A DNA stretch of 63,086 bases, counting the filler, from Globobulimina sp. (Eukaryota): the NCBI GenBank assembly GCA_003354225.1. It is 45 parts of 45 records of this genome, joined end to end, with 100 filler letters (N's around TTAATTAATTAA, not from the genome) between each part and the next. Parts side by side here need not be neighbours in the genome. Positions count along the whole stretch, not along the records: positions 50,560 to 51,862 come from PIVH01019056.1; 44 more parts are not named here. One strand, 5' to 3'. The position numbers and the translations under genes were made by a program. The notes below the pieces were generated by a model. That model was not told the origin of the DNA and searched no databases. It worked only from the letters and a program-made list of their open reading frames with translations. Positions within the stretch are counted from its first letter, which is position 1; the number at the start of each line of letters is the position of its first letter. Positions 1 to 53,265 of this stretch are shown here, piece by piece.

Positions 1-680
1 TTACATGAACGAAAAATTTCTATGTCGGAAGTGAGAACAATATCAAGAAAATTATTGCCACGTGTTGGCTCGGAAACCATTTGTTTTAGTCCCAGTTGGG
101 CAAAACGTGAAAACCATGTTTCTTCAAATTGAGTATTAGAGTCAAAAGTACTGAGGGGCCAGTTGATACCAGGCAAATTAAAATCGCCTACCACTAATAG
201 TGTACCTTTAAAATTTGTACAAATACTAATTAGAGCTCTATATAATAATAAATCATTAGGTTGTGATAAATTGGGAGGTTTATAAACACAGACTAATCTG
301 AGTTTAGAAGAGGCTGGACCAAGATCAATTGCTATTAGTTCAACGAGATTGTATAATGGATCTAACCTGACAGGAACAGCCTTAAGATTGTGTTTTACAA
401 AAATACAAACACCGCCTCCTTCTCTATCCATTCGATCTTTTCTAAACACTTCATAATCAGAATTTAGACATAACATAGCATCAGTTACCTCCTCATTTGC
501 CCAGGTTTCGGTTACACAATAAATGTCATTGACACCTAATATATCATTATGGGTTAGTAAAACACCTAATTCACTCAAGCTATTTTTCAGGCTACGTGCA
601 TTGAATAGAACAAAATTAATATATGAAAAGGAAACATAACTAGTGTCACCTGATTGCCCGCCTACTAAAAACCAGCTTGG
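1..680 (-). mobile_element. LINE (CR1/L2/Jockey-like) ORF2, N-terminal APE endonuclease, 3'-partial; missed by ORF track
   Basis: Manual translation gives FNARSL, CVTETW, FRKDR..GGGVCIFV, VYKPP, VGDFNLPGINW, PTRGNNFLDIV. Frame is open to the window edge. Confidence 0.92.
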
Positions 681-4216: not shown

Positions 4217-4762
4217 CGAGGTGGACATAGAGGTGACTATCGAGGTGGACATCGTGGTGGCTATACACGAGGTGGTTACAGAGGCAATCATCGTGGAGGT
4301 AACCGTGGAGGTTATAACAATTCGCATCATCATCAAACTCCAAATCCGAACGCGAATGGAGGTGGATATCAACCATCACAATATGAGCATATGTATCAAC
4401 CATCGCCGCATCAACAACAAAGAAACAATTATCAGCCACCGGCAAAAAGAGGAAGAGCGAATAGTGGCAATTATCAGAATAATAATTATAATCAATCTGG
4501 ATTTAAGCCACAAATTGAGAAAAAAGAGGTGAATACACAAAAGATGCAATGTTATCACGTAAGGAATGGTAATCTTTATGGAGGTCCAGAATTAGTACAA
4601 TATATTTGCAATTATCATGAAAAAGGAAGGTGTTATTATGCACAATGTCATGAAAGATGTGACTGGCATCATATGTGCAGATTTTGTTTTATCGTTGCTC
4701 GACACATTTCAGATAGATGTGATAACCGTGAAAGTGGCAATGTATATGGTAATGGAAGATAA
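4217..4762 (+). CDS. RGG-rich protein C-terminus with tandem CCCH+CCHC zinc finger (retroelement Gag/ORF1-like), 5'-partial
   Basis: RGGHRGDYRGGHRGGYTRGG... in frame with CNYHEKGRCYYAQCHERCDWHHMCRFCFIVARHISDRC. Confidence 0.6.
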   Translation, partial: RGGHRGDYRGGHRGGYTRGGYRGNHRGGNRGGYNNSHHHQTPNPNANGGGYQPSQYEHMYQPSPHQQQRNNYQPPAKRGRANSGNYQNNNYNQSGFKPQIEKKEVNTQKMQCYHVRNGNLYGGPELVQYICNYHEKGRCYYAQCHERCDWHHMCRFCFIVARHISDRCDNRESGNVYGNGR

Positions 4763-7429: not shown

Positions 7430-7480
7430 TTCCACTCAAAAAAACTTCCTTTGCGAAAAACAATCGTACACTAGCAAAGC

Positions 7481-8330
7481 ATGGACGATTTAGACACTCT
7501 TCACACCGAATTGCAAGCTAAATTGGAAGCAGTGGACAAAATACGGGATTTGTTGCCCTTCCTCGAGAAAACCATCACTTTGCCAAGTTTAAAAATCCAA
7601 ATCTCGTCCGCCTTACAACAACAATTAAAGAAAGAAGAGGCCAATCAACCTAAGAAAGGTGACAGCAAAAGCAAGCCCGCGAGCGATACCCCAACAAAGA
7701 CAGAAACGCCGCCCTCGCCGTTACCATCCCTCATTCGCGAGATTTATAACATTCTAACCGCGCCAAAAAAAGAAAAAGAAGAGGATGAAAAGGAAAACAA
7801 ATTAATGAAACCTCGTGCGGTTGATGATGATGCAAAATCTGATCATGACAAATCGCCGGTGCCCGACGAGGAGCCCTCGGATAATTATAACCGACCGCGT
7901 CCGTCCAATTATAGTAATTACAGCCGCGGCGGAGGCGGGCCACCGGCATGGAGTACGAGCGTCTGTTATAACTGTGGCGATAAAGGGCATTTTGCGCGCG
8001 AATGCCCCAATAAACGCGGCGACCGCAGATTTAACAGTGGTGGGCGCGGCGATCGTGATCGCGATGGCGGCGGAGGTCGAGGAGGTCGCGGTCGTTATGG
8101 TGGAGGCGGCGGCAATGCCAACGTACGGTGCTATCATTGCGGCAAAGACGGGCATTTCGCGCGAGACTGTCCCGAAGAATCCAACGATGAGTTGAATGAG
8201 AAATGCTTCCGTTGCGGCAAAATGGGGCATTGGGCGAGGGATTGCTCGATGAAACAGTCGAGCAATCGGTTTGAGAATGACAAATGTCATCGATGCGGAA
8301 AATCCGGACATTGGGCGAGAGACTGTGATC
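7481..8330 (+). CDS. CNBP/Gis2-like multi-CCHC zinc-knuckle RNA-binding protein, 3'-partial
   Basis: Four CX2CX4HX4C knuckles with an RGG-rich linker after the first. Confidence 0.85.
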
Positions 8331-14051: not shown

Positions 14052-15221
14052 CAGATATGCCCCCACTGTAAACATAAAGCAAATTTTAAACATATACACC
14101 AAGCACTAGACTGCCTAAAAACAATAAAACAAAGAAAACTAATTTTTAATAGTATTATAACAGAAATAGTATTCCTAAGACAGAAATTTAACCAAGACCA
14201 GTACCATAAAACAGATATAATTGACAATACATACTACCAAATGTTCCAAGATATTGCAGTAAGTGGAATAAGCGAAAAAGAGTCACATCAGAGGATAATA
14301 GAAATACTCCTAGGAACATACATAGACCCGGATCTCAAAAAATGAGCGACCATGCAAGTTAAGAAAATGTTGGCATCACACCTATACTTACTAACAACGC
14401 TAAATAAGACTATACCTATACCAACACAGCCCGATGCAATAACAACAATGCAAATAGATAATGAAATAATAAAAATATTTAAGCAAGATATAGAAGCAGG
14501 GAAAATAGTAGTAAGACAAATATACAACAACCAAGCACTATATACCAACATAAGAGATATAATAGAAAAACTGACAATACCAGATTTAGAACACTATAAC
14601 TTAGGAATGTGAGCAGCATCAACAAGAACAAGCAAACAAAAGCAGAAAGCCCAAAACTATGCAAATAATATAATACAACAAATTATAGGAACAATGGTAA
14701 ATGTAGATGGATCTATACACTTACCACATATAAAAAATAAGCCAAACTGTAACCATGGATACGGAGGGTATGGAATAATAATAACTAATGCAGCAACAAA
14801 ACAAACAATCAAAAAAAGAAATGGAACCATTGACACCAATGACCAACAATTAGCAGAGCTAGCAGGAATAAGAGCTGTATTAAAAATAATTAAAAATACC
14901 CAAAAACAACAAAATAATAAAAACTATACAATATTATGTGACTGCAAGAAAGCAATATGCTATATAAAAAGCAGAAACCAATTAAAAGAAAAATATAAAA
15001 AAATAACGCAGGAAATCAAAGAATTATTAACAACCCTAAAAAACAAAAACTACATAATAAAACTATACTGGATACCAGGACACATAGACAATATATGGAA
15101 TGACCTAGCTGACAGCTTAGCAAAAACGGCAGCAAGAAACTACAATAACCAACCACCAGGTAACTGGGCCCCTTTGGGAGCACTCCAAGTGCATCACGGG
15201 CATCCAAGGATGCAGCTTTAA
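14052..15221 (+). mobile_element. Non-LTR retrotransposon 3' region with RNase H domain; two in-frame TGA codons
   Basis: VDGS, AELAGI, CDCKKA, YWIPGH..NDLADSLAK. Upstream CPHC..H..C motif. One frame broken only at 14343 and 14610. Confidence 0.8.
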
Positions 15222-49156: not shown

Positions 49157-49297
49157 TGTGAAAATAAATTCTTTGAGCAGAAGTCACACCTCTCCATGGG
49201 AAGTCCATTATCCACTTTCTTAGCTGGAATATTTATGGAAATTTTGGAGAAGGAATATTTGAATCAAGTAGATTTTTCACCAATTTTATTTTATAGA
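49157..49297 (+). mobile_element. Penelope-like element RT fragment
   Basis: FFEQKSHLSMGSPLSTFLAGIFMEILE..PILFYR, cut just before the expected YxDD. Confidence 0.8.
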
Positions 49298-50459
49298 GTT
49301 CCTGTTGGTCGACTACTTACTTCACTAGAAACAACTTATAATATTCCACCAGGAGCATTGAATTGGTTAAGATCTTATTTATCAGGACGAAAACAAATGG
49401 TTCGTGTTAATGGTTCTTTATCAACTATTCGTAACGTCATCTCTGGTGTGCCACAAGGCAGTGTTTTGGGCCCAATGCTTTTTAATGCTTATTCGGCTCC
49501 CGCCATGCAACTCATTCTTTCATCAGGTGCCACTTGCATTGGTTATGCTGATGATTTATGTTATGTTAAGAAGGCTGAAACTGTTCAGGAACAAACTGAT
49601 ATAATTCGAGATGCCAATGCCATTGTTAATTGCTTTTCTTCACTTGGACTGTCTATAAATGTGAACAAAACTCAAGCCATGATGTTCTCCTTATCCAATA
49701 TTGAAGTTAATTTTGATATTCAGCCACATATTAACGATCAAAACCTGAACGTTGTTACAAGTGTCAAATATCTTGGTATCTGGTTAGACAAAAGCCTTTC
49801 TTGGTCCATTCATTCAAAAAAAGCTGCATCAAAGTCACGACAAGCGATTGGAGCATTCTCACGCCATTGTCGAAATTTTGTCCCAAAATCGATATTCGAT
49901 AATGTGTATAAATCTGTTATTCTGCCATCTTTTCTCTATGGTCTCACTGTTGCATATCCCATCAAAGTAAATGATCGTTCACGTTTAGAACGAGTTCAGC
50001 TTTATGCAGCACGAATTATGAGCAACAATTTTGAAATGCCATCTGATGAACTTTTGTCACATGTAAGATTGAAAACAATTTCTAAGATCATTCAAGAAAG
50101 GAGACTTATTTTATTACATAATTATCACCATGGACTTAGATTTGTGCCTGAAGGTGTGCTTGTTTCCCAAACTGATTTTGTGGGAAGAAATACCCGTAGG
50201 AGAACCGAAATTCAAAACGATTTTCTGTACAACTGTCCATTTCCAACGAGGGGTCGTTGTGGTCATGGTTTCTTCATGGACTCTATAGGTTATTGGAACA
50301 ATTTATCTAATACGAATATTTCACTTGACAAAGAACGTTTTAAGAAATTTGTGAAGAGATCTGTAATTAATTGATATTGATTTTATTTTGCTATATTTTC
50401 ATGTGTACTAACTAATTCCTATATTAACAAGTGCTGTATTACGGTCTCTTTGGATTATT
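49298..50459 (+). mobile_element. 5'-truncated CR1-like LINE (RT C-terminal part and 3' UTR)
   Basis: WLRSYLSGRKQMV, SGVPQGSVLGPMLF, YADD, KYLGI, LERVQ..AARI. Confidence 0.93.
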
Positions 50460-50559
50460 NNNNNNNNNNNNNNNNNNNNNNNNNNNNNNNNNNNNNNNNN
50501 NNNTTAATTAATTAANNNNNNNNNNNNNNNNNNNNNNNNNNNNNNNNNNNNNNNNNNNN

Positions 50560-51789
50560 GATCTGGAAAATGATAAAATTTGCATTTTAATCCATATCTA
50601 CATTCTTTGCCGTGTTTACATTTTGGTTTATATCCACCACGGCCACCACTACGATCTCCGCGATGTTGATCTCCGCGATTTTGATCTCCGCGATTTCGAT
50701 CTCAGCGATTTCGATCTCCGCGATTATTATTATAGCGATTGCTATATTTATTAATTCCGTTTCCTTGTTTTAATGCATTTATTTCTACTCTTAATTGATT
50801 AATTTCGTCATGATGACCAATATTAATCTCATTGATACTGTGAGTTGTTGACTCAACAGCAGATAAATAATTTTCTTGCTCTATAAATCGAGCTAAAATA
50901 ATTTCTAATTGGTTTGTATTAATTGCTGGCGTATTATGTATATGTACCGCTTTATCGATCACTCGCGATCGTGTTCCAACATTTAAACCTTTAATAAAAC
51001 ATTCTGCTGCTTCATATTCATTGATATCTTGATAATTATAACCATTCGCACGTTGTATTTTTATTTCAATGGGTAATGTCTGTCTTAATTCCTTAAATCT
51101 CTCTAAATGTTTCTTCAAGGAAACGTTTCCTTGTTTACTTTGTTGGACTTTCTTTTTATAATAAATTACTTGATTTAATTTACCATATCTCTCAATTAAT
51201 ACTGTCCAAATTAATGCTACTTTATCTGAGGCATTATTTAATTGACTGAAATCTAAATCTCTTTGTTGTAAATAAATATAGGCGGATTCGCCCAAAATCT
51301 TACCATATAATAATAATTTCAGTAATACGTCATTATTAATCTCATTATTCGCACAATATTTATCTATGCGTAATTTAAAATGATTAATATTTTCTGTCTC
51401 TTTTCCATTAAATTTGAACGGAATGCTTGTAATGGCTAATTTTGCCAAAGCATTCTCAATTTGTCGCTGAATATTATTATGTCGAGGCATATTCTCTCGA
51501 TTTTCTTGAGGTAATACATCATTTTTTTCTTCATCTTCGCGATTAACAATAAAACTATCAATAATAATAATAGCATCTTGTATTAATTCACGAAAATCCT
51601 GTTCATTGTCAATAATAATATGAATATATGATCATTATCTCTATTCAACGTATATTCGAGACGAACGACGACGGCAAAATCAAATTTTTCAATGATTCGC
51701 TCTTTAAACGATTCGAAATCACCTAAATCTTCTTGGCTGAATCGTATTCTTCTTGTTTCATTTTGTGATTTTACTTTAAACCAAGTCAT
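50560..51789 (-). pseudogene. PB1 domain - Gag-like capsid - RGD repeats - CCCH finger; one frameshift (about 51625) and one TGA (50702-50704); 3'-partial
   Basis: FKVKSQNETRRIRF..IIIDNEQDFRELI; PFKFNG..KQGNVSLKKHLERFKEL..FIKGL; CKHGKECRYGLKCKFYH. Confidence 0.72.
50652..50725 (-). repeat. 15-bp tandem repeat x5 encoding NRGD[RQ]
   Basis: AATCGCGGAGATC[GA]A units; unit 2 has GGA changed to TGA. Confidence 0.9.
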
Positions 51790-52222
51790 CGTTTGATTCG
51801 TTTCTGTATATTATTATTCTTTTAATATACTTATTTCTTTCGATTGATTCAATTGAATTTATNNNNNNNNNNNNNNNNNNNNNNNNNNNNNNNNNNNNNN
51901 NNNNNNTTAATTAATTAANNNNNNNNNNNNNNNNNNNNNNNNNNNNNNNNNNNNNNNNNNNNCAATATCAAGACCTAATTCAACTAAATGTTTGTAAATT
52001 GATGGTGATTTTTGTTTTTGTTTTGCTTGTTTGTTTTGTTGTGTTTTCTGTAAAGATAACAAGCAGAAAAATCTCAGATTACATTTGAATTTGAATAACA
52101 GACAAACAATATTTGGGAACCATACACTCAGTTTATTTCCCATATTCAGCGTATATACGTACTGACACTCGAACTTTAAGGCATCGGAAGGATGACGGAA
52201 AAAAAAGATTGAAAAAACCTAG

Positions 52223-52579: not shown

Positions 52580-52739
52580 AGCCCGATTTTAAGATTAAAG
52601 CAAAGGCATCGTTCGTTGACGATAATTTTTCATTAATGTCCATAGCCGACGCTAATTTATACATTAGGCCCTGACGCTAATTTTCTAAAATAATTAGGCC
52701 CTGACGAAGGCTATTTCCTGAACAACAAAAAGAGTGTCA

Positions 52740-53265
52740 TTACTTTGAGCTGTGCGTGGGAGGACGTTTTTCATTCTCACTCGAACTCAAATTCTCGACC
52801 TCATTCTCATTCCCAATGCCATTCTCATTCGCATTCTCATTCGCATTCTCATCATCTTTATAAAAACGATAATTGCCATCACGATCATAAACATCTAAAT
52901 CTGGCAACAATTTTAAAAAGCCCAACTGATTTTCATCGATTACTTCATCATTTTCAGACATTGGCGCATCATCCACTGACATCGACGTTATCATCCACAG
53001 GCATCGATATATTATTGGCTGGGATCGATATATTATTCGCTGGCAACGAGGTATTATTGGCTGCGATCGATATATTATTAGCTGGCATCGATATATTATT
53101 GGCTGGGATCGATATATTATTGGCTTGCATCGATATATTTTTGGCTGGCAACGAGGTATTATTGGCTGGCAACACATTATTGTCTGGAAACACATTATTG
53201 TCTGGCACCACGTTATTGGCTGGTAACACATTATTGGGTGGAAACACATTATTGGCTTGCAACAC
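52740..53265 (-). CDS. Protein C-terminus made of 18/21-bp tandem repeats (NNVLPA / NNISMPA) with a 1-nt frameshift near 52990
   Basis: Repeat register continues in the second frame (TSMSVDDAPMSEND), followed by an acidic tail. Confidence 0.55.

Follow-up and report, generated by a model that had tools for sequence, protein, structure and literature searches.

A broken Gag-like gene of Globobulimina sp. with a PB1-type domain before its capsid and a CCCH zinc finger behind it, probably a relic of a multi-copy retroelement

The DNA analysed here (the window, 63,086 bases, from the Globobulimina sp. assembly GCA_003354225.1) is made of 45 unrelated contigs, each 1303-1305 bp long and arranged by length, with spacers of the form N44-TTAATTAATTAA-N44 between them (e.g., 50460-50559 and 51863-51962), so that adjacency within it has no genomic meaning. 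One of these contigs (50560-51862, 1303 bp, GC 0.30) is occupied over its whole length, on the minus strand, by a Gag-like open reading frame (ORF), about which the neighbouring sequence of the window is therefore uninformative. A preliminary description had proposed that this ORF fuses a PB1 domain to a Gag-like capsid with RGD repeats and a CCCH finger, and all of the sequence features that it listed were indeed present on this contig (Table 1). No other copy of the gene was detected by tblastn in the remaining 44 contigs of the window.

The gene is carried by two reading frames, A and B. Translation from the ATG at 51789 (frame A, MTWFKVKSQNETRRIRF...) stops at a TAA (51583-51585), and frame B, open from 51631 (...IHIIIDNEQDFRELI...), continues into a 309-residue stretch followed by a single TGA. 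Residues 10-62 of frame A align to residues 18-72 of P0004, an intact relative of 479 aa (E 1e-7), and residues 4-357 of frame B to its residues 73-393 (E 6e-61). Since both frames match abutting, colinear segments of one intact protein, they belong to one broken gene. The frameshift sits in an AT-rich 'catatattcat' run, where an AT slip of two nucleotides had been proposed near 51625; the frame break itself stands, and both solutions given in Table 1 fit it. The proposed GGA-to-TGA change was also found, inside a 15-bp tandem array (50652-50725, 4.9 copies, 91% matches) whose units read NRGDR / NR*DR / NRGDQ / NRGDQ / HRGDR. Use of TGA as a sense codon was considered and rejected, as the standard code gives many ORFs that fill entire contigs of the window and the four sister units of the array have GGA. 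With a frameshift, a premature TGA and a 3' end cut by the contig, the window copy is decayed, and its C-terminal tail is missing because the contig ends, at 50560, before the ORF does. As regards the RGD repeats, the tandem NRGD array is present as described, but it is better read as part of an RG/RGG-rich low-complexity tract; an integrin-type RGD motif was rejected in favour of such a tract, as the relatives show RGG tracts at the same place.

Table 1. Features of the Gag-like ORF in the contig 50560-51862 (positions in the window; P0004 is an intact relative)
Feature	Position	Strand	Remark
Start codon ATG of the Gag-like ORF	51787..51789	-	Aligns near the N-terminus of relatives
PB1-like N-terminal domain, MTWFKVK to FIVN, split by the frameshift	51542..51789	-	Colinear with P0004 residues 18-98
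Frame break, A to B	51620..51631	-	Either 2 bases too many or 1 too few; the frames meet at P0004 residues 72/73
Acidic low-complexity linker and helix into the capsid core	51431..51541	-	Counterpart of helix 103-127 in the P0004 model
Capsid N-terminal lobe (AKLAIT..IPFKFNGK..ENINHFK...)	51182..51430	-	Equivalent to P0004 residues 127-210
Capsid C-terminal lobe	50861..51181	-	Equivalent to P0004 residues 210-316
Major homology region (MHR)-like KQGNVSLKKHLERFKEL	51086-51136	-	Within the capsid C-terminal lobe
FIKGL	50984-50998	-	Within the capsid C-terminal lobe
Long helical, coiled-coil-like segment after the capsid	50756..50860	-	P0004 model helices 298-327 and 333-355, placed by alignment
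RG-rich tract including the tandem array, then RSGGRGG	50633..50731	-	Relatives have RGG tracts next to fingers
In-frame TGA inside the repeat	50702..50704	-	Other four repeat units have GGA there
CCCH zinc finger C-x5-C-x5-C-x3-H (CKHGKECRYGLKCKFYH)	50570..50620	-	Resembles Regnase/Roquin-1 fingers
ORF still open at contig end	50560..50569	-	Intact relatives run 40-140 residues further

Relatives were sought with frame B, its TGA written as X, in an exhaustive HMMER search that covered 1.84 billion cluster representatives. This search returned 29 relatives at E<=1e-3, 16 of them at <=1e-10 and five at <=1e-30 (best 1.8e-52), so that the Gag-like feature is more than a chance ORF. They come from ENA metagenome contigs (18), NCBI (7) and EukProt (4), and the only ones that bear the name of a eukaryote are the four EukProt proteins, from the foraminifera Nonionella stella (P0017, P0020) and Bolivina argentea (P0013, P0025). 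The family is thus known so far only in foraminifera and in environmental or NCBI contigs, and functional names are absent from the database entries of all relatives. One of them, P0031, appears in NCBI as a partial hypothetical protein from a Planctomycetaceae metagenome-assembled genome (MAG); as the relatives with a eukaryote name are foraminiferal, its contig is probably of eukaryotic origin and was assigned to a bacterial MAG in binning. A word-index search for homologues found none near the query length and no longer forms of the family, which is weak evidence as low-complexity words probably crowd that index, and the family profile gave only two self-like matches there.

All relatives are stand-alone proteins of 129-705 aa, the longest being P0017. 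At least 100 residues precede the conserved IPFKF motif of the capsid in 22/29 of them, in line with the expectation that other copies link an N-terminal part to the capsid core; in the remaining seven, which mostly come from contigs of about 1.5-3 kb, 2-62 residues precede it. Some intact relatives lie on longer contigs, namely P0003 (12.9 kb), P0027 (9.2 kb), P0005 (6.8 kb) and P0019 (5.1 kb). The order in intact members is a PB1-type fold, a helical linker, the N-terminal and C-terminal lobes of the capsid with an MHR-like motif where they meet, a long helix, an RG-rich tract and a CCCH finger. Conservation within the family is highest in the N-terminal lobe. A tree built from the capsid core has a star-like shape, only 5 of its 23 inner branches being well supported, and the divergence of the family is very deep.

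A C-terminal Phe was observed in nine of the 29 relatives (P0003, P0004, P0005, P0008, P0010, P0021, P0027, P0028 and P0031), mostly as D-F or N-F, and P0023 ends in F-Q. The Phe end could be a binding motif at the terminus or mark a Gag/Pol junction (read-through, frameshift or protease cleavage site); the window copy does not reach the corresponding position.

An AlphaFold2 model of P0004 was built with the 31-row family alignment (mean predicted local distance difference test, pLDDT, 79.3) and compared, using VIA-align without Foldseek pre-selection, with 48,161 PDB representatives. Downstream of the N-terminal domain, it shows a helix (103-127), an all-helical core (141-327, pLDDT 93-98), a further long helix and a disordered tail. 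Z values below about 13 can reflect a common arrangement in helical models, and here the 16 chains with Z>=8 consisted of nine retroelement capsids or Gag-derived proteins and seven PB1 domains. The capsid-like middle part put forward in the preliminary description was indeed recovered as a two-lobed fold, residues 122-318 of P0004 being included in whole-capsid matches to Copia (Z 10.7, 163 residues aligned), dArc1 (9.3-9.5 by VIA-align, 9.3-9.9 with the Foldseek list included), Ty3 (9.2, in the Foldseek list) and PNMA2 (8.3-8.7). Other capsid matches by VIA-align with Z>=8 were PEG10 (9.3), MOAP1 (9.0) and the Ty1-derived Drt2 (8.3), and the C-terminal lobe matched the PEG10, MOAP1, Ty1 and Arc capsids at Z 7.7-10.1 (for this lobe only, PEG10 10.1 and Ty1 8.7). 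By sequence, the Pfam family Retrotrans_gag (PF03732, cut-off 24.1) was passed by P0005 (30.0 bits) and P0006 (26.2 bits) and matched in 17/31 rows of the alignment at E<=10, the window piece P0002 staying under the cut-off over its residues 144-188 (17.9 bits, E 0.0037). A language-model search placed the 309-aa ORF among gag, PNMA and DUF1759 clusters at 0.87-0.92, to be taken as a lead only, and in a fold search of BFVD, where no row reached E<=0.001, the matches were all weak, with caulimovirid coat proteins and retroviral Gag at the top.

The zinc finger at the other end is of the Regnase/Roquin type, with the C-x5-C-x5-C-x3-H spacing and with similarity to solved fingers. Its sequence matches in the PDB were indeed fingers of Regnase (ZC3H12A/C) and Roquin-1, at E 0.004-0.012 (ZC3H12C 0.0044, ZC3H12A 0.0052, Roquin-1 0.0061), and in the P0004 model the finger (pLDDT 89-95) and the helix that follows were modelled confidently at 370-410. 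The Pfam CCCH models stayed below their cut-offs for the window copy and matched 7-9 of the 31 rows at E<=10. A CCCH finger was found in 13/29 relatives with the regular expression C-x4-8-C-x4-6-C-x3-H, and a C-x5-C-x7-C-x3-H version in four further ones on inspection of their sequences by eye. CCHC knuckles were present in four relatives (P0017, P0023, P0027 and P0029), three of which also have a CCCH finger, and zf-CCHC matched 4/31 rows at E<=10; the window copy, as far as its contig reaches, has no such knuckle (C-x2-C-x4-H-x4-C). P0017 has two CCHC knuckles and no CCCH finger, and the protein continues past the knuckles. Which of the two finger types came first is not told by the star-like tree. 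Between the knuckles and the tail, at about 470-560, P0017 contains a tandem peptide repeat (NEPLRLQTNDSLPLQT...).

At the N-terminus, the P0004 model has strands at 16-23, 26-33, 61-65, 74-75 and 92-97 and helices at 40-51 and 79-87 (pLDDT 73-91), that is, the beta-beta-alpha-beta-beta-alpha-beta order of the PB1 beta-grasp, and the proposed PB1-type N-terminus is thereby supported in this relative, the fold of the window copy being assigned only through colinear alignment to P0004. The best PB1 match was Par6 (Z 10.3, root-mean-square deviation 2.3 A, 82/82 residues), followed by NBR1 (9.2), p67phox (8.5), MEK5 (8.5), TFG (8.4), AtNBR1 (8.2) and Cdc24p (8.1), with ARF7 (6.7) and p62 (6.6) lower down. 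Foldseek against the PDB ranked the PB1 domain of NBR1 first and the Copia capsid second, no row reaching E<=0.001, and a second comparison over this Foldseek list agreed with the VIA-align result. In sequence searches, P0003 passed the Pfam PB1 cut-off (PF00564, 25.4 bits against 23.6) and P0030 matched at E 0.011; the window piece, in whose frame half of the domain is absent, scored 12.7 bits (E 0.13).

What is established comprises the order of the parts, their folds in one intact relative, their conservation, both lesions, and the occurrence of diverged paralogues alongside this copy in one sample. The latter were found in the single public run that contains the stretch (run X1), whose contigs were made by another assembler; no RNA run containing it was found among the listed public sequencing runs. 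Twelve contig pieces of run X1 map to the stretch, two of them at least 99% alike, four 90-95% and six below 90%. Ten of these 12 pieces are only 85-95% alike, one differing in length across the repeat tract, and several diverged paralogues therefore exist in the same sample. Two paralogous contigs lose their likeness 0-5 bases upstream of the ATG (loose ends 51789 and 51794), so that the similarity between copies is confined to the coding part. Diverged and decayed copies, as in long terminal repeat (LTR) retrotransposons, are therefore found within one sample.

We consider the window copy to be probably a decayed copy of a multi-copy retroelement Gag gene with a PB1 domain in the matrix position and a CCCH finger in the nucleocapsid position. 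A mobile element is favoured because diverged copies occur in one sample and the window copy has decayed, because the divergence of the family is so deep, and because some members have CCHC knuckles, past which the transcript-derived P0017 extends. Several results weigh against it. Neither pol, protease, LTR nor target-site duplication was seen for any member, the window contig being 1.3 kb long and filled by gag; scans of DNA for relatives (JGI metagenomes, IMG/VR, GTDB genomes) found nothing; and no relative of Gag-Pol size was returned by the exhaustive HMMER search. The 133-residue tail of P0017 has neither a Pfam nor a PDB match, so that no protease is claimed there, its FMDIGAD motif resembling a retropepsin active site by eye only.

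The same results leave some room for a family of Gag-derived host genes that gained PB1 and CCCH modules for a cellular role, in an RNA granule or a capsid-like vesicle, the contig then being a pseudogene. We regard this as unlikely. It would be in line with the stand-alone nature of all 29 relatives, none of which is a Gag-Pol fusion, and with the missing pol and LTR; with the Phe end, mostly after Asp or Asn, which suggests a defined protein end; with the domesticated PEG10, MOAP1, PNMA2 and Arc among the closest structural matches; with a finger of the Regnase/Roquin type, which is a module of cellular RNA regulators; and with the four relatives from EukProt sets of two foraminifera, sets which we take to be transcriptomes. 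By contrast, the several diverged copies in one sample together with the decay of one of them, the star-like tree and the CCHC knuckles in 4/29 relatives, beyond which P0017 extends, are better accommodated by a retroelement. Separate gag and pol ORFs are moreover common in LTR elements, so that stand-alone Gag proteins are no strong argument against mobility.

Within the retroelement reading, the nature of the N-terminal domain has to be weighed separately. In 23 aligned N-domains (22 relatives and frame A of the window), an Arg was found on beta2 in 18/23 and a Tyr or Phe on beta3 in 23/23; an Asp was present in the beta3-beta4 turn in 16/23, and acidic residues at the start of alpha2 in 18/22 and 15/22. 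The window copy itself has FKVK, RRIRF, RDND and DNEQDF..E, and these sites are presumably the basic-cluster and acidic OPCA positions of the canonical PB1 domain of p62. The preliminary description had attributed both PB1 faces to the domain: this is borne out only in part, as the Arg of beta2 is mostly kept but a Lys or Arg on beta1 is retained in only 12/23. From these residues, a two-faced PB1 domain is plausible for the window copy and for P0004, not for every member.

That the domain is a generic ubiquitin-like beta-grasp, resembling PB1 at the level of the fold only and without PB1 function, appears distinctly unlikely to us, all seven beta-grasp matches with Z>=8 being PB1 domains, with Par6 aligned over the whole domain, and PB1 being the sole recurring N-domain family among the 25 Pfam families shown (4/31 rows at E<=10). 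The residues retained on beta2, on beta3, in the turn and in alpha2 also presumably coincide with the basic-cluster and OPCA sites of PB1 domains. Some observations nevertheless point the other way and weaken the PB1 assignment. Doublecortin (7.6), the first non-PB1 beta-grasp, and a ubiquitin-like domain of TBCE (7.4-7.6 for the two) score above the PB1 domains of p62 and ARF7; only one of the 22 relatives with an N-domain passes the Pfam PB1 cut-off, and the window's own pieces fall below the Pfam cut-offs; the family profile, compared with the PDB by sequence, matched only CCCH fingers, with no PB1 and no capsid chain; the language-model look-up of the N-domain reached PB1-bearing clusters at only 0.83-0.85, which is a lead only; the basic residue of beta1 is kept in only 12/23; and the only relative folded was P0004.

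It is very improbable that both lesions are read or assembly errors in a locus that is really intact: the depth of run X1 is only 3-5 at both sites, the frameshift lies in an AT-rich run and the TGA in a tandem repeat, and this sole run may be the assembly's own reads from its source sample, but the frameshift and the TGA are reproduced with 0 differences by two contigs of another assembler (covering 51151-51841, record 6, and 50618-50770, record 4), in agreement with the suggested inactivation, and two independent lesions within 1.2 kb suit decay better.

Gag is the assembly engine of retroviruses, LTR retrotransposons and domesticated capsids such as Arc and PNMA2, and its accessory domains set where and how particles form. 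With the Gag of Ty3 (Metaviridae) and Copia (Pseudoviridae), the present family shares the two-lobed, all-helical capsid, the Retrotrans_gag match over the lobe junction, the MHR-like Q-x8-[YH]-x3-F followed by F-x-K-G-L, and a nucleic-acid-binding zinc module after the capsid, down to CCHC knuckles in some members. Unlike them, it has a folded PB1-type domain before the capsid and a CCCH finger (C-x5-C-x5-C-x3-H, x7 in some) that replaces the CCHC knuckles or stands beside them, and neither pol nor LTR has been seen so far. Arc/dArc1, PNMA2, PEG10 and MOAP1 have in common with it the capsid fold (Z 8.3-10.1) and the stand-alone, Gag-only form; by contrast, the present family is multi-copy with decayed copies, and we know of no PB1 domain or CCCH finger in those proteins.

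PB1 drives the polymerisation of p62 and TFG and links NBR1, Par6 and aPKC. With such PB1 scaffolds (p62/SQSTM1, NBR1, TFG, Par6-aPKC, p40/p67phox), the N-domain shares the beta-grasp fold and, in part of the family, a basic residue on beta1 and beta2 and an acidic Y..D..D/E..D/E stretch at the OPCA position; it differs from them in its fusion to a capsid, in its loose OPCA and in its marginal sequence similarity. The fingers of Regnase-1 (ZC3H12A) and Roquin-1 have the same C-x5-C-x5-C-x3-H spacing, followed in Roquin-1, as here, by a helix with an EE..F motif, but the family is devoid of PIN or ROQ domains and its finger stands in the nucleocapsid position of a Gag.

The preliminary description knew of no PB1-Gag architecture, and in those parts of the searched literature that were available to us there was indeed no report of PB1 with a Gag, a retrotransposon or a capsid, no description of a folded PB1 domain in the matrix position, and nothing relevant on foraminiferal retrotransposons or on CCCH fingers in Gag. 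The only transposon-derived PB1 protein found in the same portions of the literature was plant MUSTANG-B (MUG7/MUG8; PMC8616336), which derives from a Mutator-like DNA transposase and is a domesticated single-copy host gene, unlike the present Gag family. If functional as a PB1 domain, the N-domain would provide the capsid with a second, charge-driven interface for oligomerisation or for docking to the host, and would be a natural case of a mobile element borrowing a scaffold module of the cell. The family also adds to the almost unknown mobile-element content of foraminifera, and compact intact members of 400-500 aa (P0003, P0004) are suited to expression and imaging.

From a mechanistic point of view, the capsid core may assemble shells or particles, like its structural relatives, within which the RG tract and the CCCH finger would bind the RNA of the element. 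The N-termini of the Ty3 and dArc1 capsids point outward; by analogy, the PB1 domain, joined to the N-terminus of the capsid N-terminal lobe, would decorate the outer face. Its basic face (beta1 Lys, beta2 Arg) and its acidic OPCA-like face could then allow an additional head-to-tail self-association of Gag, or the domain could instead dock onto PB1 proteins of the host. A broader scenario, which we put forward tentatively and hold to be doubtful, is that a lineage of foraminiferal retroelements captured onto the exterior of its capsid the polymerising PB1 module of cellular autophagy receptors and polarity scaffolds, either polymerising Gag head to tail into assembly condensates or docking to p62/NBR1-like receptors so as to hijack or blunt selective autophagy, with CCCH replacing CCHC.

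The other contigs of the window include further pieces of retroelements. The contig at 36520-37823 (+) consists of a single open frame that encodes RVT_1 (E 5.8e-32) and RT-RNase H domains of the Ty3/gypsy type; its element could be of the kind that the Gag-like gene comes from, but nothing connects the two contigs. A LINE (long interspersed nuclear element)-like reverse transcriptase was found at 49157-50371 (+), an AP-endonuclease domain at 3-680 (-), adjoining a coiled-coil ORF (668-1303, -), and an RNase H-like RVT_3 domain at 14613-15218 (+). At 7475-8329 (+), a protein whose frame runs off the contig combines RGG tracts with four CCHC zinc knuckles (E 3.8e-30); it may be either a nucleocapsid or a host protein of the CNBP type. 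An ORF at 4217-4759 (+) opens with a tract rich in RGG/RGD (RGGHRGDYRGGHRGG...), and its end is rich in Cys and His; neither a Pfam match nor any tblastn similarity to the Gag-like gene was obtained for it. Ordinary eukaryotic genes also lie on other contigs of the window, encoding cyclophilin, an EF-Tu-like GTPase, and Kelch, ankyrin and MATH proteins. Finally, long ORFs on both strands cover a tandem repeat at 52694-53265 (GIDILLAGIDILLA... on the plus strand), after a His-Ser-rich stretch, and are probably a translation artefact of the repeat rather than two genes.

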